DNA from: Acidobacteriota bacterium
GTDB lineage: Bacteria > Acidobacteriota > UBA6911 > RPQK01 > JADFOI01
Direction: 5' to 3'
Length of the DNA stretch: 64,000 bases
Assembly: GCA_963663035.1 (NCBI GenBank)
Contig: OY760074.1
Location: forward strand, 480,001-544,000
Shown here: one piece after another, positions 4,088 through 39,789 of the stretch
Position numbering within the stretch: position 1 is the first letter of the stretch
How the letters are laid out: every line of letters begins with the position of its first letter
Notes under the pieces: model-generated
The model's input: only the letters and a program-made list of their open reading frames with translations
Told to the model about the DNA's origin: nothing
Databases searched by the model: none
Translations under genes and position numbers: made by a program

Positions 4088-7000
4088 CTAGAAGGGCTGC
4101 CCCAAAGTGATGTGGAAGTTCCAGCGGTGGAACACCTCCACGTCAGGAGGGTTCGGCGTGTACCCGACATCGAAGCGAAGGACTCCTACTGGAGAATTGA
4201 TTTGAAGCCCGGTTCCCACCGCATGATTGAATCCTGAGGAAAGTTCGGTGGGACTGCGGAAGACGTTGCCCACATCGTAAAAAAGCGTTCCTGAAAGGAA
4301 GGCCACCAGGGGAAATCTCAGCTCCAGGTTAGCGATCAGAAGGGCATTACCTCCTAAGGGAACTGGACGGCCATTGGGATCTGGTTCCCCGAGGGCGTCG
4401 ACGAGTATGACCTCTCCCGTTTCGGGATCCTGCAGAAGAGGCCCAGCCAGATCCTGGGGAAGTCCTCGCAGTGTTGTCGATCCTCCAGAGAAAAATCGCT
4501 CACTGATGGGAATCGGATTTTCGAGCGGTTGGCCGGCGGTTCTACCGAAGGGAGCGATAACACCCAACCTCAGGGAAGATGCCAGGACTAAATCGGGGAA
4601 AAGCTTACGATAATACTGCCCCTGGGTGAAGATGCGCACAAAGTCCTCATCGGAGCCGATCACCCGAGTCGAAAGCCGTGCATCTCCAGAAACGAGAAAG
4701 CCCACCTTGGGATCGGTTGGATTATCGCGCGACTCGTTGAGATAGGATACTGAAAAACTGGAAAGACGGAGTTCTTCTTCTTCTCGAAAGAATTGTAGGG
4801 GCGCAGCAAGGTTTTCGGGCAGGTCGATCCGGACCTTCTCGAAGTTGTAGCGAAAGAAGAGAGCGTCCCGGCGGCTCAAGGTTCGCTCGGTTTGGGCCGA
4901 GGCGCTGAGGCGGAGTTCGCCAAAAGGCTTTCCGCGAATGGCTTCCCGTCCTCCTGCAATGTCTTCTTTCAGAGCCTCTTCGTTGGTGGCAGTCAAGGAA
5001 ATGAGTGAGGGGAGTTTTCGCTCAAAAAGGCGGGACAGGCTATAGGAGAGGTTTGCACGTTGGCGCCTGGCCCCAACCCGGAGACCCAGAGAGAGAGTGC
5101 TCGCTCTGCCCAGAAAGTTACTGTTGGCAATGCCGAAAGTGCCACGTGGTCCCTCGAATGAGCTGTAACCGAGACCGTAAAGAAGCGTATATTTTTTTGC
5201 TTCTTCCATATTAACTATCACGTTTTTCTGAAGTGGATCTCGGTAGGAAGAAACTTCTCTGACCTGTACTTTGTTGAAAATAGCCAAATTGTACAAGTTG
5301 GTCTCGGTCGCCAGGACACGATCCAACGACAGAGGGTCCCCGGGAGCAATCTCCACTTCTCTTTGAAGCAGATCCTTCCGAGTGGTGAGGCTGCCAGTCA
5401 GGATGACCTGTTCGGTGGAGGTACGGGGCCTTTCCCGAATCAAGTATGTGATCGCAACTCGTCCCGGCTCTGGGTAAACGACTTCAGAGCTGAAGTCCAC
5501 TTCCCGGTAACCCAGGTTTGCGTAGACAGCAAGAACGTTGGCACGATCCTGGGCCACAACAAGAGGGGAGAAGGGTGTCCCGGGCCGGCCCTGAAGTTCC
5601 TCATAAAGGGTCTCCTTACTGAGGTCTTTGTTGCCAGTGAACTCCACAGATTCGATCAGATAGCGCGGACCCTCCTGAATCTTGTAAAGCACTGTGAGAT
5701 CATGCGAGTCAGGACTCTCCACGATAAGGGAATGAGCGACTTCCACATCCTGGAAGCCACTTCGCTGATAGTACCTCGTGATGCTGATCACATCTTCTTC
5801 TGCCCTCTCGGTCGAGAACTTTCCTCGAGTAAAGAGTCCGTTCTCCTCAACGCTGAGGATCTTCTTCAGGGATCCACTTTGGGCGAACCGGTTTCCTTCG
5901 AACAGGGCTTCCTTGAGACTGTATTTCTGGCCTTTATCGACGGTGATCACGACCTTGGTAGGTTCCCGGCCGGTCCCTGTGGTTTCGTAATCCACTTGGG
6001 CCATGAAGTAACCCTCATTTTGATATCCCTGGCGAAGTTCTTTTCGAGTTGCCTCCAGATAGAAGGGTGCTGTACCTCTTTGGCTGAAGACGGGAAGATC
6101 TGCAAGTTCCTCACGACTAGCTTCGATGCCATGAAATTCAATCTGAGTTCGTTCTTTCGGTTCAATGCGAACAGTCAATGAGGCAGAATTCTCCGTATCG
6201 TGGTATTGAACTGTCTCCCTCACGAAACATTGAAGGTAGCCTTGCAAGAACAGATACTTCTCGATTGTGCGAAGGTCTTCTTCCAGTTGAACCCGGGAAA
6301 AAGCTTTTTCTTCACGGGTCTCCATCAGAGACTGGATTTCTTTCACATTCAAATCTCCCTCGACATCAAGACCAAGCTCATCCACAAGGGCCTGATCCCC
6401 GGCTTCGATCTGCAGTCTCAGAATGAGGCGCGCATTCTTATGAAGGAGTTCAAAGCGGGGTTCGATTCGGGCACGGTAGTAGCCGTGTCTCTGGTACAGC
6501 TCACTTAAACGGCCAAGGGTTTCTTCCATCAAAACTGCTGAATAGGCTTCTCCAGCTCGAAAGGCCAGTTCTCGACGGAGTTGTTGCCGGTCCAGTTCCA
6601 AGTCTCCCTCGAATTTGATTTCCTGGATCAAGTATTTACGAATGAGAAGAATCCTGACCCGCACCTGATCGCCAGCGGGTTCGAGGTCAACCTGTACGTC
6701 GTGGAAGATTTCAGTGGAGAACAGGCGTTTCAGAGAGCTTGCGGTTTGAGAGGCGCTGTAGGGCTTTCCCTCGCGGAGTTCAATCAAGTTGAGAAGATCG
6801 TTGGTCGAGATGTGATTCAGTGGGCCGTCGGATTGGAGTTCGATCGTCTGAATGATCTTCCCCTCAAATGGGGAATTGGCTCGAAGGAAACTCGGCAGAG
6901 TAAAGCAAAAAATCAGACTCAAGAAGAGAGCCAGTATCGCTTTGTCAACCGGGCCGGCTGATGAATTGTGCGCTCCAGCCCGGATTATGCATAGGTTCTT

Positions 7001-7159
7001 GTCACGAAGCGACGAAAGCGCCGAGCTGACAAGGCGCGCGAGGGGTACCCGCCACGGGTCGGCCCCCGCAAACGTACTCTTGAGTACGTTGAGGAGGCCG
7101 ACTGAGAGCAACGCTGTCAGGGCGGATGATTTCGTCGCTGCAGTAGAGAATTTATGCAT
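4088..7159 (-). CDS. Omp85-family (TamA/BamA-like) outer membrane protein with multiple POTRA domains; start uncertain, first in-frame ATG lies in the MITE end
   Basis: Signal-like hydrophobic stretch, repeated POTRA patterns (I.F.GN; Y...GY), RFFSGGSTTLRG barrel motif, C-terminal ...LGQPF. Confidence 0.85.
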   Translation of the reverse strand: MHKFSTAATKSSALTALLSVGLLNVLKSTFAGADPWRVPLARLVSSALSSLRDKNLCIIRAGAHNSSAGPVDKAILALFLSLIFCFTLPSFLRANSPFEGKIIQTIELQSDGPLNHISTNDLLNLIELREGKPYSASQTASSLKRLFSTEIFHDVQVDLEPAGDQVRVRILLIRKYLIQEIKFEGDLELDRQQLRRELAFRAGEAYSAVLMEETLGRLSELYQRHGYYRARIEPRFELLHKNARLILRLQIEAGDQALVDELGLDVEGDLNVKEIQSLMETREEKAFSRVQLEEDLRTIEKYLFLQGYLQCFVRETVQYHDTENSASLTVRIEPKERTQIEFHGIEASREELADLPVFSQRGTAPFYLEATRKELRQGYQNEGYFMAQVDYETTGTGREPTKVVITVDKGQKYSLKEALFEGNRFAQSGSLKKILSVEENGLFTRGKFSTERAEEDVISITRYYQRSGFQDVEVAHSLIVESPDSHDLTVLYKIQEGPRYLIESVEFTGNKDLSKETLYEELQGRPGTPFSPLVVAQDRANVLAVYANLGYREVDFSSEVVYPEPGRVAITYLIRERPRTSTEQVILTGSLTTRKDLLQREVEIAPGDPLSLDRVLATETNLYNLAIFNKVQVREVSSYRDPLQKNVIVNMEEAKKYTLLYGLGYSSFEGPRGTFGIANSNFLGRASTLSLGLRVGARRQRANLSYSLSRLFERKLPSLISLTATNEEALKEDIAGGREAIRGKPFGELRLSASAQTERTLSRRDALFFRYNFEKVRIDLPENLAAPLQFFREEEELRLSSFSVSYLNESRDNPTDPKVGFLVSGDARLSTRVIGSDEDFVRIFTQGQYYRKLFPDLVLASSLRLGVIAPFGRTAGQPLENPIPISERFFSGGSTTLRGLPQDLAGPLLQDPETGEVILVDALGEPDPNGRPVPLGGNALLIANLELRFPLVAFLSGTLFYDVGNVFRSPTELSSGFNHAVGTGLQINSPVGVLRFDVGYTPNPPDVEVFHRWNFHITLGQPF

Positions 7160-7167
7160 AATACGGG
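6979..7167 (-). mobile_element. MITE family B copy 1 (IS1380-like ends), 189 bp
   Basis: TIRs cccggattatgcata / tatgcataatacggg, flanked by ccag / ctag; internal palindrome aacgtactcttgagtacgtt. Confidence 0.88.
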
Positions 7168-7175
7168 CTAGACTT

Positions 7176-10100
7176 TCAAAATCGTTGCTTGAGCTTGAAG
7201 TCGATGGCAACTGATCCGTCCTGGTCCCGGTTCCAACCGCGGTCAACCAGTCCGTTATTTTGTATTCGAAGACCACGATTTGACCCTGCTGATCGCTGCT
7301 CAAATCAGTGCTGTAGTTAACGGATAGATCTCTCGTCAACTGTTTGCCCAGGGTGATTCGAGCTCCCGGGTCGCGCTCGCTCCCGAAAAGGAATGGATCG
7401 ATGGAAAATTTTTCGAATCCGAAAAGCCGACTCGTTCGATTTTCCAGTCTTTCTCCGAGACTCTTACTGAGAACAGCTCCCGCTCCATAGACAGCCAGAG
7501 TGCCAGCTTCGCTCTGTCTTTCCCCTCCAAACCCTAGAATTTCTTCCTGGGTCTGCCCGATCGCGAGAAGGGAAACAATGCTCGGTGTGGGCATGGGAGG
7601 ATCCGAGCGGAAAGTGAACTCCAACTGATCGAGAGGTCCCTGGACAATTACCGAGATCGTGAACTCCCGAATCTCGGTTTGACCCTCCAGATTCACAAAA
7701 GGTCGAGTGCGTCTGGGATCATTGAAATTGACGATTCCTCGAGAGATCTCATAGTCATTATTCTCCAAAAACAGTTGACCACTGTCGATGGTGACAGTGC
7801 CCAGAATGACAGGGTTCTGTAAGGTACCGCGGGCAACGAGTTCAGCACTGGCCACCAGGTCGGCCAGATTGTTGGTAGCGCGTAGACTCTGATAAGCCTC
7901 GACCGTGACATCCAGGACCACTTCCGGAGCCGCTGTGGTGGGGAGGGAAGCGATCTCACCCTGAGCATATAGGGAAATGATTTCAGGGATAGAGATGTCC
8001 TGGTTGTACTCCGCAGCCCGCACATAGACCGCACCAGAGATCAATTCGGAGATGTCGCTTTTCAGGAGGTCCAAATCCACGTCTATGGTCGAAATCAGGT
8101 TGCGTGGATATTCCAGACGGAGGCCGTTTCCAAAGACGTTGATTTGCCAACGGGTAGCCGTTAAACCCTCCAGGAAGATCCCTCCTTCCGCGTTTACCGT
8201 GCCAAAGATGGTATTTGAGGAAAAGCTGTCCAGAGAAACCTGATTAGCAGTGAACCTGAGACTGCCCTCCGCATCAAAGAGGGTGGTTGGCAATTGGGGA
8301 TGATCAAGGAAGCCCTCTTCCAGTTCAGCAATTCCGACCATGCGGGGCTCGCTCAATGGACCCGCGATGACCATTTCCAACTGGACCTGCCCGGCCATGG
8401 TCCCGGAAGGCAAGAAGCTGTTCATCACCAGCAGGTTCATGGTCCCTTCCAGCTCGAGATTGATGCTTCGGCTTTCTCCCAGGTCGATTGTTCCTCCGAT
8501 CTGAAGCTCGGAATCCTCGCCGTTCAGGCTGAGTTGGTCCAGGGTCAACAGCCCGGCTCGATAAGAAAGCCGTAAGGGGTTCAGGTTCTTCAGCTGGTAA
8601 GTCGACAGGGAAAGGTCGATTTGTGGAAACACCACCTCAACGCTGAGTTCGGCGGGATCCTTTAAGGGTCCAGTCAGTGTCAGGCGGCCGCTCACAAGAC
8701 CACCAACATCCGGGAGATCCTGGGCAGGAATCAGCTGCAGGTAAGGATCCAGGGAGACTTCTTTCAACTCCGATGTGGCATTGATCCAGTAAGGGTCAAC
8801 GAGTCCGAGCTGCCCTTCAAACAGGAAAGAATTTCCCAGGTAGCCGTGCTGCAAACGAAAATCAAGAGCTTCTCCCCGGCCTTCTGCCTGCAGACGAACG
8901 TTCTCCAGGACGGACTCCTGGATGACGATTCGAGGTCCCTCCAGGAGAAGTTCAAAATTCGAGTCACTGAAGTTACCCTTTCCTGTGAAGGTGAAGTTGA
9001 TTGGACCTTTGGCTGGAATCTCCTTTTGCAGCCAGCCAAGATTCTCCAGTGGGAACTGGTCGCCCTTGAGATCGACCCTATAGGATTGATCATTCCAGCT
9101 CACAGCCGCCTGGCCGGAAACTGTGCCCTGCTGGACTGAGCCTTGAAGCTCTTGCAGAAGAATCTCCCCGTCTTCAATATCGACCTTGACACTGAAGCGG
9201 TCCAGTCCTTCGTCGTAAACTCTCGGCTGTAAGACTGAAAACCTTCCGCTGCCCCTGTAATCACCCGAGGCGATCTCTTCGAGGTGAAGTTGGCCGCTCA
9301 CCTGTCCCTGCATGGGGATCGCCAGAGGGGTCATGGAGAGAAAACGTTCTATGGGGACTTGATCGAGTTGAAGCTCGAGTGCTTCCAATGACGGAATCTC
9401 TGTCGAGTCGAGGGACAGGCGCAATGAAGTACTCAGTCCAAACCCGGGCCCAAGGAGTCTCGCTTCATCGATTTGGAAGGTCTCTTCGGATAAGCTGATC
9501 CGTGTTTCGAAGTCTCCCAGGAGTTCGTCTCTGAGGTGAATTTGCTCGCTCCGAACTGTTCCTCTCAGGCTCAATGGGTCCTTTCCTCCCTCCAGAGTTC
9601 CGGAGATACGAGTTGGGCCCTTGATCTCGATGAAATCGTGGTAGAGGAATCGTTCTGGCACTCCGCTGGACCCGATCAGTGTGAAGAGTTCCTCACTCTG
9701 CTGTGACACAAGGTCGAGATCTAACCGATAAGCTCCTGGGAAACCGATAGAACCGCTATAGTTGATCAGGCTTGAGGGAGTACGAAGCACGCCATCTGTC
9801 AGGTTGATTTCCTGCTGTCGGAACGAAATCGAGGAGTTCCCCTGGAAGGAAAGAGCCGGCAAGGTCGAGCTTCCCATGGGAGCTTGGGGAGAAAGCTCCC
9901 CCTGGTAAGAGAGATGACCTTGGGCACTCACTTCTTCCCAGTGAAGTCCGGGCCAACCCACCTGGCCAGTGAAGTCTGCAGAGCCGTGGAGTGGGAAGGC
10001 TTCCTGCCCCAAAGCTGTGAGGAGAGGGTCAATCGTGATCTGAGATGCGTCAACCTGAAAGTCAGAGGCGCCATCCTTCCAGTAGAGCTTTCCATGTGTC

Positions 10101-11116
10101 CGAACACTGCCGTCATAGAGCTGTGCCTCCAGGCTCTCCACAGTCATCGCTTGAGAATCGATGAGAACCCTGGCCGCAACTCGGCGGAGAGGAAGCGTTT
10201 CAAGTTGAATCGCATCAGAGTACGCTTCCCCCTGGAATAAGAAGTCCCCTGCTGTATTCGACAGGGTCCCGCTCAGAGAAAAGCGACCCTTCTGGACATG
10301 AGAGCTGAGAGGAGACCTTTCTAATCGGGCAAGATCGAGAGACAGATTGGTCTGGAAGCGGTATGCCCCAGCTCTGATATCGCTGATATTGCCCTCAGCA
10401 CGAGCTTCAATCTCGTGAGAATCAAGCCTTAGGGAAAGAACTCGAAGTTGGTTCCCCAGGGCTTCAAAGTCCAGGGACAAGCTTAAATCTGTGACACTGA
10501 ATCCGTTGAACCTCATACTAAAGTGTTCAAAGCTGCTGTGACCGATATACTTGCTTTCTTCGGGAATAAACTGCAGTGTGGTGGCCAGTCCCCCTTCGGC
10601 TGAATCCAGAACGAAAGCTTGGTCCTTGTAGAAAATCATCCCCTGGTTGAGTACCAGCTGCTGGATCCCCAAGGCTGGGAGGGAGAACTCGCCCTCCTGC
10701 TCCGGCAGGTCCTGGGACCAGAAAATATTTGAAAAATTGAATTTCTGGTTCGGATCCTCGGCAAGGTGGATATGAGGGTAGTCAAGGGTGAGGTTGTCCA
10801 GGGAGATGGAAGGAGCCAAGAAGTGAGTCATCGAGAAGTCCAGCAGGATGTGGTCAATGTCGATGGCGGGTTCGCGACCCGGGTATGCCCGGCTAAACAG
10901 TTGGAGATTATAGATATCGACCTGGGCCCCGAACAACTGAACGTCAAGGTAGCCAAGTTCAAGACGTGCATTGAATCGCTCTTCAAGAGTCTCGATTATC
11001 TGGTTTCTCAGCCACTGTTTGAAACCATCGCTGCGGACATACCGGCCTACAGCGGTTGGTACCGCCAGCACCAGGAAGAGAGAAAAGAGCGCGCCTATCT
11101 TGACAATTCGCCGCAT
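7176..11116 (-). CDS. tamB: TamB / AsmA-like translocation and assembly module protein (1-nt frameshift near 7228 close to the C-terminus)
   Basis: N-terminal anchor, long beta-rich body, DUF490-like C-terminus. An alternate frame gives (R)DQDGSVAIDFKLKQRF* ending at 7176. Confidence 0.8.
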
Positions 11117-29316: not shown

Positions 29317-29673
29317 GTGCTGGCTGCATATGTTCCTATCCTGATTTTTATCCTGGTTGCCCTGTCTATGCCTGTGGTGGGGCTGCTTGTGGGGAAATTG
29401 ATTCGACCCTACAGACCTCATGCCACAAAGTTGATGCCCTACGAATGTGGCGTGGACCCAGAGGGCGATGCCCGCGACCGATTTTCGGTTCGCTTTTATA
29501 TCATTGCCATACTTTTCGTGGTTTTCGACGTTGAAACCATCTTTCTATTTCCGTGGGCCATCATTTATGATCACCTGGCTCTGTTCGGATTTATCGAAAT
29601 GCTGGTTTTCTTGGGGATCTTGCTTGTGGGTTATCTGTATGTTTGGAAAAAGGGGGCCTTGGAGTGGGTTTAA
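29317..29673 (+). CDS. nuoA: NADH-quinone oxidoreductase subunit A
   Basis: [24 protein letters not shown]. Confidence 0.96.
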
Positions 29674-30164
29674 TTGAGGGGCGGATGGAAAAGAATATCG
29701 TGACGACGACGGTCGATTCGGTCTTCAACTGGGCCAGGAAGTCCTCGCTCTGGCCCATGACATTCGGGCTGGCCTGTTGCGCAATCGAGATGATGGCCAC
29801 AGGCGCCTCCCGTTTTGATATGGATCGTTTTGGCGCTGGAATCTTTCGGCCTTCTCCCAGGCAGAGTGATCTGATTATCATTGCCGGGACGGTGACTTTG
29901 AAGATGGCAGAGGTGATTCAGCGGCTGTACGATCAAATGCCGGAGCCGAAGTGGGTCATCTCCATGGGGGCCTGTTCCAGTGCCGGTGGGCCGTTTGACA
30001 CTTATTCAACTCTTCAGGGCGTGGATAAGATCATTCCCGTGGATGTTTATATCCCTGGATGTCCGCCTCGTCCCGAAGCGCTGCTCTATGGTCTGATGCG
30101 ACTTCAGGACAAGATCGATCACATGACCATTGCCAAAGAAGAGGAGCAGCTTCCGACCGGCTAA
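29664..30164 (+). CDS. nuoB: NADH-quinone oxidoreductase subunit B
   Basis: [22 protein letters not shown]; GTG start likely. Confidence 0.96.
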
Positions 30165-30205
30165 TCGAGCAAGCCTGACCGCGTTTTGTAATCTCCTGGT
30201 GTGAA

Positions 30206-31045
30206 ATGGACGAAGAGGACAAGCCAAAGCAACCCCTAGAGCCAGAAGGCCAAGAGGCTCAAACTACAAAATCCGAGGACAGCGAAGCCCCCAAACCTTC
30301 GAAGCCGAGCCCGAAATCGGCTGAGCCGGAGAAATCTGTCAAGCCTACTCCCCCCACAGCAGCCAAGGACAAGCCAAAGCAACCCCAAGAGCCAGAAGGC
30401 CAAGAGGCTCGAACTACAAAATCCGAGGACAGCGAAGCCCCCAAACCTTCGAAGCCGAGCCCGAAATCGGCCGCGCCCGAAAAACCTCCCAAGTCTGCTC
30501 CCCCCAGAGCCGCCAAGAAGAAGGTACTCTCGTACGAAGATCTGGAAGATGATGTACTCCTTCAGAAGCTGAAAGAGAAATTCTCAGGCGGGATTCTGTC
30601 CGGTCAGTCCTTTCTCGATCAACCCATTTACACGGTTTCCATGGAATATTTCAGTGACCTTATGGTTTACCTCAGGGACGATCCGGAGTGGGACTTTGAC
30701 TACTTGATTGATGTGACCGCTTTGGATTACCTGGGAGACGAAAAGCGGTTCTGTATGGTCTATCATCTCTATTCTCACCAGCACGGGAAGCTGATTCGAA
30801 TCAAAGCCCGAATATTGGAAGAGGAAGTTGTGCCCTCGGTGAGTTCCATCTGGAAAGCCGCTGATTGGATGGAGCGGGAAGTCTACGATCTGTTCGGCAT
30901 CGAGTTTTCCGGACACGACAATTTGAGTCGGATTCTTCTGCCCGATGACTGGCACGGTCACCCCTTGCGCAAGGATTACGACATTAAATTGCAGGACCAG
31001 GCCTGGATTAAGAAGCATCTGCACATCACAAAGACTCCCCCATGA
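30206..31045 (+). CDS. nuoC: NADH-quinone oxidoreductase subunit C with Pro/Lys/Glu-rich duplicated N-extension
   Basis: [12 protein letters not shown]...GHPLRKDY. Confidence 0.93.
30217..30471 (+). repeat. in-frame direct repeat, 150-bp period, inside nuoC
   Basis: ggacaagccaaagcaaccc... at 30217 and 30367. Confidence 0.9.
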
Positions 31046-32181
31046 AGACACTGGAAGACATGAACACAATGGAAGAATCGACCATTCTCGACGCCAAGGT
31101 CCTGGAACTCAATATGGGTCCTCAGCACCCGTCTACTCACGGTGTGCTTCGAGTGAAGTTAAAGTTGGATGGTGAACGGGTGATGGATGCGGAGTGCATC
31201 ATCGGTTATTTGCACCGGGGTGTGGAGAAGATCAGCGAGAATCGGTCTTACATCAAGTGCGTTCCCTATTACGACAGGACGGACTACATTGCGGCCGTTT
31301 CCAACGTCTACGGTTTCCTCCTGGGCGTGGAAAAAATGATGCAGATCGAGGTGCCAAAACGTGCCCAATGTATCCGCATCATGATGACGGAGTTTTGCCG
31401 CATCTCGAGCCACCTGCTCTGGTTGGCCACCCATGCCATTGATATCGGGGCCATGACGGTTTTTCTGTATTGTTTTCGGGAGCGGGAGGAAATTCTCAAA
31501 TTGTTCGAGGCTCTCTTCGGTGCCCGACTGACCACTCATGCCTTTCGAGTGGGCGGCCTGTGGAAGGACTTGCCTGCAGGATTTGAGGAGGCAGCGCGCA
31601 AATTTATCGATGAGTTCTCCGACCGAGTAGATGAGTACGAACAGTTGCTCACCAAGAACCGAATCTGGCTGGGTCGGACCAAGGGGATCGGTGTGATTTC
31701 TGGTGAAGAAGCTATCCAATGGGGATTGACCGGTCCTGTCCTGCGTGGTTCAGGGGTGGACTACGATCTCCGCAAGGCTCGTCCTTATGGAGGATACGAA
31801 GAGTTCGACTTCGACGTCCCGCTGGGTGAAAACGGAGACACCTACGATCGATATCTGGTGCGGCTGGAGGAGATGCGCCAGAGCCGGCGAATCATTCAGC
31901 AGGCACTGGATAATCTGCCGGAAGGACCTATTCGCGGGAAGGCACCCAAGATTGTCAAACCGCCTGTGGGCGAGTACTACTCTGGTATTGATGGTCCCCG
32001 CGGGGAGTTGGGCTATTACATTGTCAGCGATGGCTCGGCTCAGCCCTTCCGGGTGAGGATCCGTCCTCCCACCTTTCTCAGTCTGCAAGCCTTGCGCCGC
32101 TTGGTGAAGGGGCATCTGTTTGCCGACGTGGTTGCCATAATCGGCACATTGGACATCGTTTTGGGTGAGGTCGACCGATGA
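31042..32181 (+). CDS. nuoD: NADH-quinone oxidoreductase subunit D
   Basis: [27 protein letters not shown]. Confidence 0.97.
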
Positions 32182-33278
32182 TCGAGATCTTACTTATTTA
32201 TTTCCTCATACCATTGGTGAAGATTTCCGTTATCGTGTTGATCCTTTCCGGGGCAATCGCTTACTTGACACTGCTGGAACGCAAGTTGATTGCTCATATG
32301 CAGGTCCGTCTTGGACCCATGAGGGTGGGATGGCACGGTCTCCTTCAGCCCATTGCCGATGGTTTGAAGTTTCTTCTCAAAGAGGACATCGTTCCCGCCA
32401 AAGCCGACGCTTTGATTTTCACCATCGCACCGGCGATTTCCTTGATCCCCGCCTTCCTGGTTTTTGCAGTAGTGCCATTCGGGCCTCCTGAGATGTTTCA
32501 GGGGCTGCTTCGTTGGACCCTGAGCTGGGTCCTGGACGCTGCTACCACAGAAAGAGTGGTGCAAAATGCCCTTGCTTCCGGGGGATACGTGACTGACATC
32601 AACATCGCTGTCTTGTTTGTCTTGTCGGTTTCCTCGGTCGGCATTCTGGGGATCATTCTGGGAGGATGGGCATCCAACAGCAAATATCCTCTGTTGGGGG
32701 CGCTGAGATCCTCCGCTCAGATGGTCAGTTACGAGGTGGCCCTTGGATTTTCCATCATTGGAGTTCTTTTGCTGGCAGGTTCTCTCAGCTTGGTCGAGAT
32801 TGTTCAAGCTCAGCAGGAAGCGCACCTTTGGTATTTCTTTGTCCAGCCCCTGGCCTTTGTGATCTTTTTTATCTGTGGGCTGGCGGAAACCAATCGTCTT
32901 CCCTTCGATTTTGCTGAGGCCGAAACCGAGCTGGTAGGGGGCTTTCACACCGAGTACAGTGGATTTCGATTCTCACTTTTCTTCCTGGCAGAGTACGCCA
33001 ATATGATTACCGTTTCTGCCATAGGAGTGACACTTTTTTTGGGGGGGTGGCTGCGGCCCTTTCCGAGCTTCGAGTGGCTGTCGTTCCTGGATTTCATCCC
33101 AGGCGTGATATGGTTCCTGGCCAAAGTATTTCTATGGCTTTATGTTTTCATTTGGATACGGGGAACTTTACCCCGTTTCCGGTTTGACCAACTGATGCAA
33201 TATGGTTGGAAAGTCTTTTTGCCCCTGGCACTGGGCAATGTCATTGTGTCAGCAGGCGTCTTGCTTGCGTTTTTGTGA
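32178..33278 (+). CDS. nuoH: NADH-quinone oxidoreductase subunit H
   Basis: [26 protein letters not shown]. Confidence 0.97.
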
Positions 33279-33287
33279 GAGTGAACA

Positions 33288-33752
33288 ATGGTTGACTTTT
33301 TGAGACGCATTTTTCTCATCGATATTTTAAAGGGTCTAGCCCTGACTTTCCGTTACACCTACCGGAAGGTTTACACGGAGCAGTATCCGCTGGAAAAACC
33401 GAAACTCGCGGAAAGGTATAAGGGAGCACCCCGTCTGAACAACGATCCCGTGACGGGAGAGACCCTGTGTATTGCTTGCGATCTGTGTGCCGAGATTTGT
33501 CCAGAAGATCTCATCGTTGTGGGTTCACAGCGCGATCCTGAAAGCCGGAAAAAAGTCCTCACCCATTACACATTCGATACCTCGCGTTGCCTCTTTTGCG
33601 GGTTGTGCCAGGAAGTCTGCCCGACCAACGCCATAGAGTTGACCCAGGACTTTGAATTGGCTAGCTATTCCCGAAGTAACATGGTCTGGGATCGGGCGCA
33701 GTTGGAAAAGGGATGGGATCGGATCGTGTTCGGAAAGGATTACCACAAATGA
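33288..33752 (+). CDS. nuoI: NADH-quinone oxidoreductase subunit I
   Basis: Two CxxCxxCxxxCP 4Fe-4S motifs. Confidence 0.96.
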   Translation: MVDFLRRIFLIDILKGLALTFRYTYRKVYTEQYPLEKPKLAERYKGAPRLNNDPVTGETLCIACDLCAEICPEDLIVVGSQRDPESRKKVLTHYTFDTSRCLFCGLCQEVCPTNAIELTQDFELASYSRSNMVWDRAQLEKGWDRIVFGKDYHK

Positions 33753-33778
33753 AGGCTGACACCTGACACCGCTTTACC

Positions 33779-34291
33779 ATGGAAGCTACTCTCTTCTACA
33801 TACTGGCCACAATCTTGGTGGTTTTTTCTATTCTCACGGTAACTGCAGGGAACCCGGTGCGCAGTGCGGTTTATCTGATTTCCGCTCTGCTGGGAATGGC
33901 GGGACTCTTCTTTCTTCTGAAAGCCGAATTCGTTGGAGCTGTTCAGATTCTCGTCTATGTGGGTGGGATCATGGTGCTGTTCCTCTTTGTGATCATGTTG
34001 GTCAGTGTTCGGGAGGTGGAGACTCAAAGGAAAGCTAATCGCCAGTGGAAAACGGCTGTGGCCTTGGGGATTGTGCTGTCCTTCGAGCTGCTCTTTTTTG
34101 TAGTGCGAGGCTCTGCTGTCTTTCACACCGGAACGGTCAGTCAGGGATTGGTTGAACAGCCTCAGACTTACAATACGGAGTCGGTCGGTGCTCTGCTCTA
34201 CAGCACCTATCTCCTGCCCTTTGAAATAGCTTCCGTGTTATTGCTGGTTGTCATGGTTGGAGCTGTTGTTTTGACGAGGAAGCAGATATAG
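33779..34291 (+). CDS. nuoJ: NADH-quinone oxidoreductase subunit J
   Basis: QILVYVGGIMVLFLFVIML, PFEIAS. Confidence 0.96.
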   Translation: MEATLFYILATILVVFSILTVTAGNPVRSAVYLISALLGMAGLFFLLKAEFVGAVQILVYVGGIMVLFLFVIMLVSVREVETQRKANRQWKTAVALGIVLSFELLFFVVRGSAVFHTGTVSQGLVEQPQTYNTESVGALLYSTYLLPFEIASVLLLVVMVGAVVLTRKQI

Positions 34292-34306
34292 CCCGGATTA
34301 TGCATA
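34292..34306 (+). mobile_element. solo family B / IS1380-type TIR right after the nuoJ TAG
   Basis: atag|cccggattatgcata. Confidence 0.7.
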
Positions 34307-34332
34307 GTCCTTGCTGCTGAAAGGATTCAAAT

Positions 34333-34635
34333 ATGGTGGATACTTCACACTATCTGGTTCTCAGCACCATTGTTTTTACGATTGGAGTCATAGGAGTTCT
34401 CACGCGCCGAAATGTCATCATCATCCTGATGTCGATTGAACTGATGCTCAACTCGGTCAACTTGAACCTGGTTGCTTTCTCCGACAGACTTCAGGATCTC
34501 TCGGGCCAGGTCTTTGCTGTTTTTGTCATCACCGTGGCAGCAGCGGAGGCGGCCATTGGTCTGGGCATCGTGATTGCTCTGTTTAGCAACAAGGAGACGG
34601 TGAATGTGGACGAGATTGACCTCCTGAGAGGATAG
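34333..34635 (+). CDS. nuoK: NADH-quinone oxidoreductase subunit K
   Basis: [18 protein letters not shown]. Confidence 0.96.
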
Positions 34636-34638
34636 CCC

Positions 34639-36732
34639 ATGCTGAACACTCTCTGGCTCATTCCCCTGTCTCCACTCATCGGCTTTTTTCTCAATGGTCT
34701 GTTCGGACTGTGGAAGGTCTCCAGAACCGGAAGCGGTCCTAAAAAGTTCTACGTTTACTGCGTTGCCTGTGGGAGTATCCTGATCTCTCTGCTCCTTTCT
34801 GTGGGCTGTTTCTGGGCACTGGTCCAACTCGACCCGGAGCATCGACTGGTGGAACAGGAGCTGTTTACCTGGATCAGCGGCCCGGCGGTGCTCACTGCTG
34901 CAGGTGAACTGGCCAACTTCCACATCACCTGGGGACTCCAGCTGGATCCGCTCTCTGCCGTAATGATCCTGGTGGTCACGGGAGTGGGCTTTCTGATTCA
35001 TGTTTATGCCATTGGCTACATGGCGGAGGAGGAGGGTTTCTATCGTTTTTTCGCTTACATGAACCTCTTCATGTTCATGATGCTGACCCTGGTTCTCGCC
35101 AGCAATTACCTGGTCATGTTTGTGGGGTGGGAAGGGGTGGGTCTCTGCTCGTATTTGTTAATTGGCTACTACATCCACAAAAAGAGTGCCGGCGACGCGG
35201 CCAAAAAGGCCTTTGTGGTCAACCGAATAGGAGATTTTGCCTTCATCATTGGGATGCTGATGATGTTTACCTATTTTGGCACGTTGGACTTCACTGAACT
35301 GTTTCACGGAGTAGGGGAGATGTTTCCCACTCCGGAATCAACCTGGGGCCCGCTGAGCTGGATCGCCTTGCTGCTGTTCATTGGTGCCACTGGGAAGAGT
35401 GCCCAGATTCCACTCTTTGTGTGGTTGCCTGACGCCATGGAGGGACCCACACCGGTGAGTGCCCTCATCCATGCGGCGACGATGGTAACGGCCGGAGTCT
35501 ATATGGTGGCCCGCTCGAGCGCCATTTACAGTCGTGCCCCCGACGTGCTTTTGATCGTGGCTGTAGTGGGTATCTGTACAGCCTTGCTGGCAGCCTCCAT
35601 TGCTCTTTTCCAGCACGACATCAAGAGAGTGCTGGCCTACTCGACAGTCAGTCAGCTGGGCTATATGTTCGCCGCCCTGGGAGTGGGAGCTGCAGCCGCT
35701 GGGATCTTTCACCTGATGACCCATGCTTTCTTCAAGGCACTGCTCTTCTTGGGATCAGGAAGCGTCATCGTGGCTCTTCATCATGAGCAGGATATGAGGA
35801 AGATGGGCGGTTTGAGGAAGTACCTCCCCAGGACCTGGTGGACCATGGGGATTGCTTCCCTGGCCATCGCGGGTGTACCCGGTCTGTCCGGCTTTTTTTC
35901 CAAGGATGAAATTTTGTGGCGGGCTTTCAGTAACCCTCAGGGGCACCTCCTGATCTGGTTGGTGGGAGTCCTGGTGGCAGGGATGACCGCCTTTTACATG
36001 ATGCGCCTCATGTTTCTCACCTTCCACGGGGAGGAGAGGATCTCGCCGGAAGTGGCAAGCCATGTTCATGAATCCCCAAATGTGATGACTGTGCCCTTGA
36101 TTGCCCTGGCCATCGGATCTGTGCTGGTGGGATACCTGGGTCTACCTGCCTGGTTGGGACCCAATGCCTTTGAGCACTTTCTGGAGCCCGCCTTCGAAAC
36201 CAGTTATCAGTCGGCGGGTGAACCAGCTGCCTCCGGACATTCCACCGAGATACTCTTAACCTTCGTTTCGATTACCCTGGCTGGAATCGGAATCTTTCTG
36301 GCCTATCATTTCTTCCTGAAATGCAAGGAGAAACCGGCCCAGTGGCGGGAGCGATTCAGTGGCCTTCACCAGCTCATCTACAACAAATACTATGTGGATG
36401 AGGCCTACGATCTCTTGTTCGTCAGTGGAGGGAAAGGCTGGGGTCGGTTTTTGGGAGCGAAGAATTGGGGTCGACATTTTTCAGCCTTCGACAACAACGT
36501 GGTGGACGGAGCTGTCAATGGCAGTGCCACCATTACGCACATCTCAGCTTGGCTCTCGGGTCAGGCTGACATTCACATTGTGGATCGCATCGTCAACTTG
36601 GTGGCCAAAGTGTTTGAGTTGTGCAGTACCGTCTTAGGGAAGCTTCAAACCGGGCTGGTGCAGCGATATGCCCTGTTCTTTGTGATCGGGATTATCCTGG
36701 TGATCAGCCTCTATCTCTACATGGGAGTGTAG
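34639..36732 (+). CDS. nuoL: NADH-quinone oxidoreductase subunit L (extended transverse helix)
   Basis: GWEGVG, WLPDAMEGPTPVSALIHAATMV, THAFFKALLFL. Confidence 0.97.
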   Translation: MLNTLWLIPLSPLIGFFLNGLFGLWKVSRTGSGPKKFYVYCVACGSILISLLLSVGCFWALVQLDPEHRLVEQELFTWISGPAVLTAAGELANFHITWGLQLDPLSAVMILVVTGVGFLIHVYAIGYMAEEEGFYRFFAYMNLFMFMMLTLVLASNYLVMFVGWEGVGLCSYLLIGYYIHKKSAGDAAKKAFVVNRIGDFAFIIGMLMMFTYFGTLDFTELFHGVGEMFPTPESTWGPLSWIALLLFIGATGKSAQIPLFVWLPDAMEGPTPVSALIHAATMVTAGVYMVARSSAIYSRAPDVLLIVAVVGICTALLAASIALFQHDIKRVLAYSTVSQLGYMFAALGVGAAAAGIFHLMTHAFFKALLFLGSGSVIVALHHEQDMRKMGGLRKYLPRTWWTMGIASLAIAGVPGLSGFFSKDEILWRAFSNPQGHLLIWLVGVLVAGMTAFYMMRLMFLTFHGEERISPEVASHVHESPNVMTVPLIALAIGSVLVGYLGLPAWLGPNAFEHFLEPAFETSYQSAGEPAASGHSTEILLTFVSITLAGIGIFLAYHFFLKCKEKPAQWRERFSGLHQLIYNKYYVDEAYDLLFVSGGKGWGRFLGAKNWGRHFSAFDNNVVDGAVNGSATITHISAWLSGQADIHIVDRIVNLVAKVFELCSTVLGKLQTGLVQRYALFFVIGIILVISLYLYMGV

Positions 36733-36735
36733 TCG

Positions 36736-38295
36736 ATGAGTTTTTTTATGGAGAACATTCTCACCATCGTGTGTTTTTTCCCGCTCGTTGGAGTGGTGCT
36801 CATTGTACTGTGGCCGAAAGGAGAGGGCCAGGACGATTCGATTAAATGGATTGCCAATATCGTTTCCTTCATCGGCTTTCTCATCTCTCTTCCGCTCATT
36901 ACCCAGTTTAATAATCCCGGTCACATTCAAGAGGCCACCGGCATGAGATTTGTGATCCGGGCGGACTGGATCGATGCCATCGGCGCCCAGTACCACTTTG
37001 GTATCGATGGGATCAGTATGCTGCTGATTCTCCTGACGACGCTTCTAGGTTTTATTTCGATTCTTTCCTCCTGGTCGGCGATTACGGAGCGGGTCAGGGA
37101 ATACTATTGCTACTTTCTCCTGCTTCAAGTGGGGATGTTAGGTGTCTTCATGGCACTGGACTTCTTTCTTTTCTATGTCTTCTGGGAAGTCATGCTGGTG
37201 CCCATGTACTTCATTATCGGGGTGTGGGGAGGACCTCGCAAGCTCTATGCGGCCATTAAATTCTTCCTCTACACATTAGCCGGCTCGGTCCTTTTGCTCC
37301 TGGGTATTCTGGCCCTCTACTTCTATCAGCACAGCGTGACGGGAGTTTGGTCCTTTGACATCCTGGCCCTGCAGCAGCTGGACATTCCTCTGGAATTGCA
37401 GGGGTGGATTTTCCTGGCCCTTTTCCTGGGTTTTGCCATTAAGGTCCCCATGTTCCCTTTCCATACCTGGCTTCCTGATGCTCACGTGGAGGCGCCCACT
37501 GCCGGGTCCGTCATTTTGGCCGCCATTTTGTTGAAGATGGGGACCTACGGGTTTGTCCGCCTCAGCCTGCCCATTCTTCCTGAGGCGTCGATGGCATTCC
37601 TCTATCCCCTCTTGATTTTATGTGTCATCGGCATTATCTACGGTGCCCTGGTGGCCATGATGCAAAAGGATATGAAAAAGCTGGTGGCTTACTCTTCGGT
37701 CAGCCACCTGGGCTTTTGCATGTTGGGAGTATTTGTTGCCACCCCGGTGGCTCTGGAAGGCGGAATCCTGCAGATGATTAACCACGGAATCTCCACAGGG
37801 GCTCTCTTCTTGATTGTGGGCGTCCTTTACGAGAGGCGTCACACCCGGATGATTGCCGACTTTGGAGGGCTCTCCCAGATCATGCCGGTTTACGCCACCG
37901 TTTTTTTGATCATGACCCTTTCTTCGATTGGCATGCCCGCACTCAACGGGTTCATCGGGGAGTTCATGATCCTGCAAGGAGTGTTCGCGGACCCCACCTA
38001 CAGGCTCTGGGCGGTTTTCGGGGCGGTGGGTATTGTCCTGGGTGCGGCCTACATGTTGTGGCTTTATCAGCGTGTGATGTTCGGCCCGCTGGATAACCCG
38101 GAGAACCAAAATCTCCCAGATTTGAACTGGCGGGAACTGGCGACCTTTGTGCCTTTGATCATTCTGGCCTTCTGGATCGGGCTCTACCCGAAAACCTTTC
38201 TGGATTATCTCCATGATCCGGTCAATCAGATCGTTGAAAGAGTGCACCCAGGCGAGTTTGGCCCTCTTCCTGTTCAGGTGGCGGTGAGGGAGTAA
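36736..38295 (+). CDS. nuoM: NADH-quinone oxidoreductase subunit M
   Basis: FWEVML, HTWLPDAHVEAPT, LKMGTYG. Confidence 0.97.
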   Translation: MSFFMENILTIVCFFPLVGVVLIVLWPKGEGQDDSIKWIANIVSFIGFLISLPLITQFNNPGHIQEATGMRFVIRADWIDAIGAQYHFGIDGISMLLILLTTLLGFISILSSWSAITERVREYYCYFLLLQVGMLGVFMALDFFLFYVFWEVMLVPMYFIIGVWGGPRKLYAAIKFFLYTLAGSVLLLLGILALYFYQHSVTGVWSFDILALQQLDIPLELQGWIFLALFLGFAIKVPMFPFHTWLPDAHVEAPTAGSVILAAILLKMGTYGFVRLSLPILPEASMAFLYPLLILCVIGIIYGALVAMMQKDMKKLVAYSSVSHLGFCMLGVFVATPVALEGGILQMINHGISTGALFLIVGVLYERRHTRMIADFGGLSQIMPVYATVFLIMTLSSIGMPALNGFIGEFMILQGVFADPTYRLWAVFGAVGIVLGAAYMLWLYQRVMFGPLDNPENQNLPDLNWRELATFVPLIILAFWIGLYPKTFLDYLHDPVNQIVERVHPGEFGPLPVQVAVRE

Positions 38296-38298
38296 TGA

Positions 38299-39789
38299 AT
38301 GCCTGAGATTCCGATATTGGAGAACCTTGTGGGGTCCTTCCAGGCCATTGGACCCCAAATCCATCTCATTCTCTGGGCTCTGGGAATCTTGTGCCTTGAC
38401 TTCCTGACTCCACCAGGCAAGAAGGGCTTCGGTGCAGTTCTTGCTTTGAGCGGACTGTTGATAGCTTCTGCCCAGCTGTATTCGTCTTGGGATGTCGGAC
38501 CAGTTTCTGCCTTTTACGACATGCTCGCGCTCGACTCCTTTGCCCTTTACTTCGATTTACTTTTTCTTGTGGCCGCTTTTCTGGTTGTGTTGATGTCGTA
38601 CAAGTACCTGGAGGTTGAAGATGAACAGCAAATGGAGTACTACGCGCTCATTCTCTTCGCCACCGCTGGGATGATGTTCATGGCCGGCGCCATTGATCTG
38701 GTGAGCCTTTTTATCAGTCTGGAGCTGATGTCCATTTCCACCTATGTCCTGGTCGGCTTTCTGAGAAACCGAAAGAGATCCAATGAAGCCTCACTGAAGT
38801 ACTTCCTCCTGGGAGCTTTCTCTACCGGAATCATACTGTACGGGATGTCACTGCTTTACGGACTGGGCGGTAGTACAAACCTGCATGAGATCGCACGGCA
38901 GGTCTCCCAATTGGAGAACAACACCCTACTGACGCTTTCTCTCTTCATGATCATGGCGGGTTTGTGCTTTAAGATTGCCGCCGTTCCGTTTCACATGTGG
39001 GTTCCCGATACCTACGAGGGAGCCCCTACTTCCATTACCGCCTTTATGTCGGTGGCGGTGAAAGCGGCGGCTTTTGCCATCTTTTTCCGAATCTTTTTCG
39101 TAGCCTTTGGCGATCTGCGTGAAGTTTTTATATTTCCTCTGGCTCTCATTGCCATGGTTACAATCACCTGGGGAAATGTGGCCGCTCTGAGCCAACAGAA
39201 TGTCAAGAGGTTGTTGGCATACTCCAGTATTTCTCACGCTGGTTTTGTCCTGATGGGACTGGTGGCTGGCACCGAGCGCGGAGTCACCGCCTCGGCGCTC
39301 TATCTGTTGGCTTATACCTTCATGAATTTAGGTATCTGGGCGGGAGTGATCTTGCTGCGGCGCAAAGATATCCCTGGGGAGAGAGTGGAAGACTTTGACG
39401 GCCTCTACTTCAAACACCCGGCCCTTGCCGTTCTGATGCTGGTCTTTTTCCTGTCTTTAGCAGGAATTCCTCCCTTGGCAGGATTTTTCGCCAAGTACTA
39501 TGTTTTTCTTTCAGTGCTGGAAGTTGCGTTCATTCCGGGTGAACCCCATTCCTCCCTGATGGTTTGGCTGGCAGTGGTGGCTGCTCTAAACGTGGTGGTT
39601 GCCCTGTACTATTACTTCCGCATTGTGGTGTCGATGTTCATGAAAACGGATTCTGTACCTGTTCCTTTGAGCTTTTCGAAGGGCTTGCTGGTGGTGCTGG
39701 TTATTACCGGATTCTTCACCCTTCTGATAGGGGTCTATCCCGAGCCCTTTATTAAGCTTGCCCAAGCCGTCAGCCTGCCGCTGATTTAG
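38299..39789 (+). CDS. nuoN: NADH-quinone oxidoreductase subunit N
   Basis: EASLKYF, PFHMWVPDTYEGAPT, LAYSSISHAG. Confidence 0.97.
   Translation: MPEIPILENLVGSFQAIGPQIHLILWALGILCLDFLTPPGKKGFGAVLALSGLLIASAQLYSSWDVGPVSAFYDMLALDSFALYFDLLFLVAAFLVVLMSYKYLEVEDEQQMEYYALILFATAGMMFMAGAIDLVSLFISLELMSISTYVLVGFLRNRKRSNEASLKYFLLGAFSTGIILYGMSLLYGLGGSTNLHEIARQVSQLENNTLLTLSLFMIMAGLCFKIAAVPFHMWVPDTYEGAPTSITAFMSVAVKAAAFAIFFRIFFVAFGDLREVFIFPLALIAMVTITWGNVAALSQQNVKRLLAYSSISHAGFVLMGLVAGTERGVTASALYLLAYTFMNLGIWAGVILLRRKDIPGERVEDFDGLYFKHPALAVLMLVFFLSLAGIPPLAGFFAKYYVFLSVLEVAFIPGEPHSSLMVWLAVVAALNVVVALYYYFRIVVSMFMKTDSVPVPLSFSKGLLVVLVITGFFTLLIGVYPEPFIKLAQAVSLPLI

Follow-up and report, generated by a model that had tools for sequence, protein, structure and literature searches.

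A nuoEFG-less complex I operon of an acidobacterial genome with a duplicated module in the lateral helix of NuoL and a single nuoM gene

The nuo operon of the window

The window analysed here, a stretch of 64,000 nucleotides, belongs to an Acidobacteriota genome assembled as one contig (3.59 Mb, 96.6% complete). It contains an operon of 11 genes on the + strand, nuoA-B-C-D-H-I-J-K-L-M-N (29317..39789), and all 11 products match NCBIfam models of named subunits. Neither the list of open reading frames (ORFs) nor the NCBIfam matches gave a nuoE, nuoF or nuoG within this operon. The gene for NuoL (34639..36732, + strand; 697 residues) was assigned with TIGR01974 (753.6 bits; cut-off 407.5), and its product also passes NF005141 (737.1 bits; cut-off 556). 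It is followed by nuoM (36736..38295, + strand; 519 residues; TIGR01972, 622.7 bits), the sole nuoM of the operon, and by nuoN (38299..39789, + strand; 496 residues; TIGR01770, 434.2 bits). These three genes are contiguous, with spacers of 3 nt and no other ORF in between. The order L-M-N, the single nuoM and the absence of N-module genes from the operon, all given in a preliminary description of this DNA, were thus recovered from the ORFs and the NCBIfam matches. The Shine–Dalgarno-like sequences upstream of nuoL, nuoM and nuoN gave no sign of raised NuoM output. Genes for ATP synthase F0 and ccmE/ccmF lie downstream of the operon.

The key residues of the antiporter core are present in NuoL (TM5 Glu, TM7 Lys and TM12 Lys-Asp) and in NuoM (TM5 Glu151, TM7 Lys236, TM8 Lys267 and TM12 Glu409). 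The best solved relative of the window NuoL is Nqo12 of T. thermophilus, and the nearest NuoL loci in public genomes are those of Acidobacteriota metagenome-assembled genomes (MAGs; 84, 81 and 73% identity).

Two further observations concern other genes of the window. NuoC carries an N-terminal extension of ~105 residues (30206-30520) that is rich in Pro, Lys, Glu and Ser and has an internal repeat of ~40 residues; the Pfam and NCBIfam matches of NuoC begin only at about residue 118-146. An additional membrane element was considered for this extension and ruled out, as it has no hydrophobic segment. On the − strand, a single ORF of 2342 residues (4088-11116) combines an AsmA/TamB-like part (residues ~1-1293), four POTRA repeats and an Omp85 barrel (residues 2000-2341), so that functions usually divided between TamB and TamA are fused in a single protein.

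The duplicated module of the lateral helix

The C-terminal part of NuoL comprises TM15 (residues 535-560, 36241..36318; assigned by hydropathy, AlphaFold2 helix 534-561), the lateral helix (HL) region (residues 561-669, 36319..36645; delimited by AlphaFold2 helices) and the QTG turn with TM16 (residues 670-697, 36646..36729; assigned by conserved residues, AlphaFold2 helix 674-694). The HL region is 109 residues long, compared with ~75 in the paralogous NuoL of the same genome. Near its start lies the first acidic docking motif, YYVDEAYD (residues 584-591, 36388..36411), which is conserved in NuoL sequences with a long and with a short lateral helix (D587 in 100 and 98%, E588 in 95 and 95% and Y590 in 97 and 98% of long and short forms, respectively). 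Residues Q670, G672, Y677 and G684 of the QTG turn and TM16 are likewise equally conserved in both forms, as is R667.

The difference in length is due to a module of 26 residues. Module A (residues 617-642, 36487..36564) has no counterpart in the paralogue or in 57 short forms, while module B (residues 643-668, 36565..36642) is common to the short forms and resembles module A. The two share 7 of 26 residues, with an ungapped BLOSUM62 score of 26 that was reached by two of 100000 shuffles of module B; within the whole of NuoL, module B is the best match to module A (26, with the runner-up at 6). At the DNA level the copies are identical at merely 34 of 78 positions, and the duplication is therefore old. 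The motifs DNNVVDGAVN (36490, residue 618) and DIHIVDRIVN (36568, residue 644) lie in the nuoL frame 78 nt apart, and the span from Y585 to G672 is 88 residues (36391-36654), both as the preliminary description had reported. The TIGR01974 profile match on NuoL stops at residue 617, where the duplicated module starts. The paralogous NuoL (648 residues) lacks exactly 26 residues here, in gaps of 2 and 24.

Among 131 NuoL sequences, the distance from D587 to Q670 is bimodal, with 57 short forms (37-51 residues), 74 long forms (74-84 residues) and none between; 60 of the 74 were selected for matching the long helix, and 13 long forms were present among the 69 rows of a NuoL similarity search. The length of the insert is fixed, the distance being 74-75 residues in 71 of the 74 long forms. 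Asp residues 618, 623, 644 and 649 are invariant in all 74, and likewise in 51 of 51 sequences in another comparison. Other residues of module A are also kept in the 74 long forms (G624 in 96%, V626 in 97%, N627 in 93%, G628 in 92% and T633 in 97%). In module B, V652 is kept in 74 of 74 long forms, and the short forms have D644 in 100% and D649 in 98%. Hydrophobic-moment profiles of the helix added little.

The window NuoL has a second, lineage-specific insertion, a tandem duplication of nine residues identified by alignment (GGKGWGRFL/GAKNWGRHF; 27 nt twice, 36427..36453 and 36454..36480, + strand). The copies are identical at 18 of 27 nucleotides, as counted from the sequence, and this duplication is younger than that of the 26-residue module. 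Its columns are filled in only three of the 74 long sequences; the duplication aligned only with locus L007, and a third row is also filled. The D587-to-Q670 span of the window NuoL, 83 residues, includes both the 26 residues of the module and these nine. At the same site, the short forms have a Pro that is conserved in 95%.

Structures of both NuoL proteins of the genome were predicted with AlphaFold2. The model of the window NuoL (mean pLDDT 86.6) has TM15 at 534-561, short helices at 565-572, 574-581, 583-596 and 600-604, a long helix at 607-669 and TM16 at 674-694, and that of the paralogue (mean pLDDT 87.2) has TM15 at 519-546, short helices at 548-557 and 559-566, a long helix at 568-622 and TM16 at 626-647. 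In these models the 26 extra residues lengthen the continuous helix, with a confidence of 56-79 along the lateral helix of the window NuoL, and are not placed in a loop outside it, the outcome that would have spoken against a helix duplication. The predicted breaks of the helix (597-599 and 605-606) coincide with the nine-residue duplication. Compared with solved NuoL, the model gave a VIA-align Z of ~50 and a core r.m.s.d. of 1.7-1.8 Å over 522-558 residues. The superposition holds to about residue 596-613; when TM16 is included, the r.m.s.d. rises to 9.6-10.5 Å. As a model of a single chain, it is silent on what the lateral helix rests upon.

The nine-residue insert indicates that the helix tolerates slack at the hinge and is therefore not a strict ruler. 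One explanation of the longer helix builds on such slack: both ends would dock as usual on an arm of three pumps, the helix would bend or stray along the membrane surface and so absorb the additional 39 Å, and the module would serve for bracing or lipid contacts. Loci with two nuoM genes and a short helix (see below) also fit this explanation, as they show helix length and gene number to be separable. A free bulge should, however, drift in length and sequence, whereas the insert is fixed in length, keeps invariant Asp pairs and a small-residue pattern like that of the canonical module and is predicted to lie within one continuous helix. We consider slack of this kind a rather unlikely explanation.

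The long-helix family and its antiporter-like genes

In the complex I superfamily, longer lateral helices go with larger numbers of antiporter-like subunits, as described in PMC9474812 and PMC9040806, and a 26-residue insertion has been taken to indicate a complex I that contains an additional proton pump. The preliminary description had suggested that a second antiporter subunit might be supplied in trans. In the complete one-contig genome, PF00361 has six matches, which form two L-M-N sets. The second set is located at C1:663988-668899 and adjoins nuoJ2 and nuoK2; the remainder of this set, nuoA-B-C-D-E-F-G-H-I, is at C1:1766449-1774248. Of the two enzymes thus encoded, the canonical one has 14 subunits and a short helix, and the other lacks EFG and has a long helix. 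The PF00361 search of the whole genome gave no orphan nuoM or mrpD and, at 96.6% completeness, no fourth antiporter-like gene for the long-helix set elsewhere. Supply of a fourth antiporter-like subunit from the second nuo set or from another locus would fit the presence of further PF00361 genes besides the long-helix set in every genome checked. In this genome, however, those genes are only L2, M2 and N2, which go with nuoJ2 and nuoK2 as part of a complete 14-subunit set, and in five complete f44 genomes (G073, G110, G258, G325 and G334) no L-M-N cluster other than the long-helix set was matched. The suggestion gained no support in this genome, and a subunit supplied in trans is very improbable. 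In the five f44 genomes the remaining PF00361 genes, 2-3 in number, cluster with very long ORFs and are Mrp-like by size only.

A search with the helix region gave matches in 288 of 401 genomes of the phylum, a tally that counts G024, G049 and G152, whose sequences entered no alignment or tree; all 150 of the matches listed span both modules. Exactly one NuoM-type gene follows nuoL in each of 80 fetched Acidobacteriota loci picked for the long helix, with the order L-M-N in 74 and L-M with nuoN not adjacent in six. The 15 long-helix loci from the NuoL similarity search also have one nuoM each, and neither a further nuoM nor an ORF scored as its remnant was found in any of the 95 long-helix loci. 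Where upstream DNA was available, nuoD adjoins nuoH with no E, F or G in 12 of 13 long-helix loci, the 13th being without upstream nuo genes, whereas E and F lie between D and H in 20 of the 22 short-helix loci that show both. The window locus is of the EFG-less long-strap type: nuoD adjoins nuoH, nuoE, nuoF and nuoG are absent, the helix has four modules and the single nuoM belongs to the M1-type clade.

The opposite mismatch was observed in two Blastocatellia MAGs (L036, 12084-15460; L042, 12112-15483), which have the order nuoL-nuoM-nuoM-nuoN with nuoEFG upstream and a short helix. In the tree, the two groups of their NuoM proteins are sisters, the result of a duplication specific to this lineage.

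In the NuoM tree, a clade with support 99 unites 68 of 73 NuoM sequences of long-helix operons, including that of the window (win_M1), and is separate from the sequences of short-helix operons. The NuoM tree needs three changes of helix state, of which well supported branches force only one, compared with 10-12 changes in the tree of the NuoL core. A single clade of the NuoL core was rejected by the AU test (p = 0.027), for a group that was named after inspection of the tree. Taken alone, the NuoL core tree could point to a module gained and lost repeatedly; in view of the three changes in the NuoM tree, this is not claimed here. The conflict may reflect exchange between the cores of paralogous nuoL genes. 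Given the NuoM clade, common descent suffices to account for the association of the long helix with the loss of EFG.

In the NuoL core trees, the paralogous nuoL of the present genome (G000:C1:666953-668899) is placed with long-helix NuoL sequences from its own order (support 95-99), and the NuoM of the second set, M2, groups with the NuoM of short-helix operons. Judged from these trees, exchange between the cores of the two nuoL copies is possible.

Four genomes of family f38 (G087, G259, G249 and G032; loci L166-L169) contain true 2M operons, A-B-C-D-I-H-J-K-L-Ma-Mb-N, again with no EFG; in these operons nuoI precedes nuoH. The lateral helix of the window NuoL aligns without gaps to the four 2M NuoL sequences, with the insert in the same place and the same length of 74 residues between the D587 and Q670 columns, which upholds the earlier assignment of the insert as 2M-type. 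The 2M NuoL and both 2M NuoM proteins have long branches and fall outside every other NuoL and NuoM sequence sampled, and the window enzyme is not close to them. Ma and Mb are only ~31% identical in the four enzymes; both keep the TM5 Glu and the TM12 Glu, and Mb has Leu in place of the TM7 lysine. Module A and module B are more alike in the one-M enzymes (median BLOSUM62 score 28, n = 74) than in the true 2M enzymes (−14, −3, 5 and −13), a contrast that depends on a single 2M clade on a long branch. In family f38, the long-helix one-M operon is found in five genomes and the 2M operon in four, and none of the nine has both.

The equal helix length of the true 2M operons of the phylum would also fit a relic, the extra module being a functionless leftover of a lost second nuoM, as the preliminary description had proposed in the alternative. 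Such a relic is scarcely credible: none of the 95 loci retains a second nuoM or a scored remnant ORF, each having one nuoM; the module keeps residues that do not vary across the phylum; and the 2M NuoL with both its NuoM proteins branches outside the clade of the window. The window locus is very probably an ordinary member of a large, old nuoABCDHIJKLMN lineage that lacks EFG and in which NuoL carries an ancient, helical extra FD..VVDG.VN module under purifying selection, with no matching antiporter-like gene in the operon or the genome.

The added length of helix and known systems

In solved enzymes, TM16 of NuoL docks at the junction of NuoN, NuoK and NuoJ. In the description given in PMC8762328, TMH15 lies at the tip of the arm and TMH16 beside ND2, ND4L and TMH4 of ND6. 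The lateral helix of the window NuoL would likewise run from TM15 near the NuoL tip to TM16. TM15, the YVDE motif, the length of the TM14-TM15 linker and the QTG turn with TM16 are alike in long and short forms, so the ends of the strap look fixed; if both dock in the usual way, a partner is needed for 39 Å of conserved, tightly packing helix. One module would correspond to the width of one antiporter-like subunit, the helix acting as strap and ruler, and an additional conserved, tightly packing module would call for a further partner of subunit size between NuoL and NuoN. On the most economical reading, one that the preliminary description had also raised, this partner is a second copy of NuoM from the same single gene; the arm would then have four pumps (L-M-M-N), and the enzyme would be a one-gene counterpart of the published 2M enzyme with its two genes. 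We give this reading a probability of roughly 0.3. Such an arm would be suited to a donor of low potential, or to electron flow in reverse, in an enzyme that lacks NuoEFG. The same tentative reading may be extended to the whole long-strap EFG-less family, which would then be four-pump enzymes in which one nuoM product fills two adjacent, non-equivalent positions and the NuoL helix serves as the ruler.

Three observations fit a second NuoM copy: the two modules of the one-M enzymes are alike, the one-M and 2M operons of family f38 replace each other, and Ma and Mb share their Glu pattern. As both M subunits of the 2M enzymes keep the TM5 and TM12 Glu, an M/M junction is chemically like the M/L junction that the window NuoM already makes. 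Against a second copy, were there two M positions throughout the phylum, an occasional tandem duplication of nuoM would be expected, yet none was found in the 95 long-helix loci; the slack at the hinge (the nine-residue insert) and the two nuoM genes with a short helix in L036 and L042 also speak against it.

A longer brace is nearly as likely as a second NuoM copy, doubtful as either may be. Here the arm would have three pumps, in agreement with the gene content, and the strap would extend past NuoN along NuoK, NuoJ and NuoA, with TM16 anchored nearer NuoA or NuoH, so that the whole membrane arm of these N-module-less enzymes is braced. NuoK, NuoJ and NuoA together have about the helix count of one antiporter-like subunit, and the long helix accompanies EFG-less operons. 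The predicted TM16 also lies off that of solved NuoL in rigid superpositions (9.6-10.5 Å, against 1.7-1.8 Å for the core). The likeness of R667, Q670, G672, Y677 and G684 in long and short forms points, weakly, to the same docking site instead, and the second FD..VVDG.VN motif would sit on a different boundary (NuoN/NuoK) and yet keeps the same invariant residues.

If a second NuoM copy is present, a ruler helix, and not gene content, could determine how many pumps complex I has, and many soil Acidobacteriota would use a low-potential donor to drive an enzyme that pumps five or six protons. If not, the strap must dock in a mode that is absent from every solved structure. Since the insertion is the conserved norm in a large family with no extra pump gene, 2M enzymes cannot be called from NuoL alone.

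Compared with canonical 14-subunit complex I (T. thermophilus, PDB entry 4HE8; E. coli, PDB entries 3RKO and 7Z7S; and the second set of this genome), the window NuoL is alike in fold, in its TM15-helix-TM16 design and in its YVDE and QTG motifs. The canonical helix, in contrast, has one FD..V.DG.VN module and a conserved hinge Pro, and none of the solved chains compared has the module twice. Cyanobacterial NDH-1 (PDB entry 6HUM and others) resembles the window enzyme in the absence of NuoEFG and in its L-M-N type arm. Its helix, however, is short, and its single D.NVVDGVVN motif (NdhF, 6HUM) aligns to both copies of the window NuoL.

The 2M complex I (Chadwick, Hemp, Fischer & Orphan, 2018, as represented in the citing papers PMC6606698, PMC9040806 and PMC11636273) has the same ~26 additional residues at the same place in the lateral helix of NuoL. 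Its clade 3 is described as having an operon without nuoE and nuoF (PMC6606698), as in the window. The window differs in that neither its operon nor the genome contains a second nuoM.

A helix insert unmatched by an additional pump gene has already been published. Complex_I_1 and Complex_I_2 of Ca. Manganitrophaceae (Yu et al., 2022, mBio; PMC9040806) combine the NuoL helix insertion with the canonical number of pump subunits, a mismatch that the authors call "curious" and for which they propose an ability to accommodate additional subunits or, alternatively, an evolutionary transition. In the literature searched, this remark was the only account found, with no printed account of a long-helix, one-M enzyme in Acidobacteriota. 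What is added here is the comparison with 2M enzymes of the same phylum, the NuoM clade, the contrast in module similarity and the nine-residue duplication at the hinge. The window shares with Ca. Manganitrophaceae a NuoL insert without an extra pump gene in the cluster. As far as the published description goes, the genomes of that family (Nitrospirota) also encode a five-pump complex, whereas the window genome has no surplus pump gene, and their clusters are canonical in gene content, whereas the window operon lacks nuoEFG. Overall, the locus belongs, as an unexceptional member, to a kind of enzyme that is already known.
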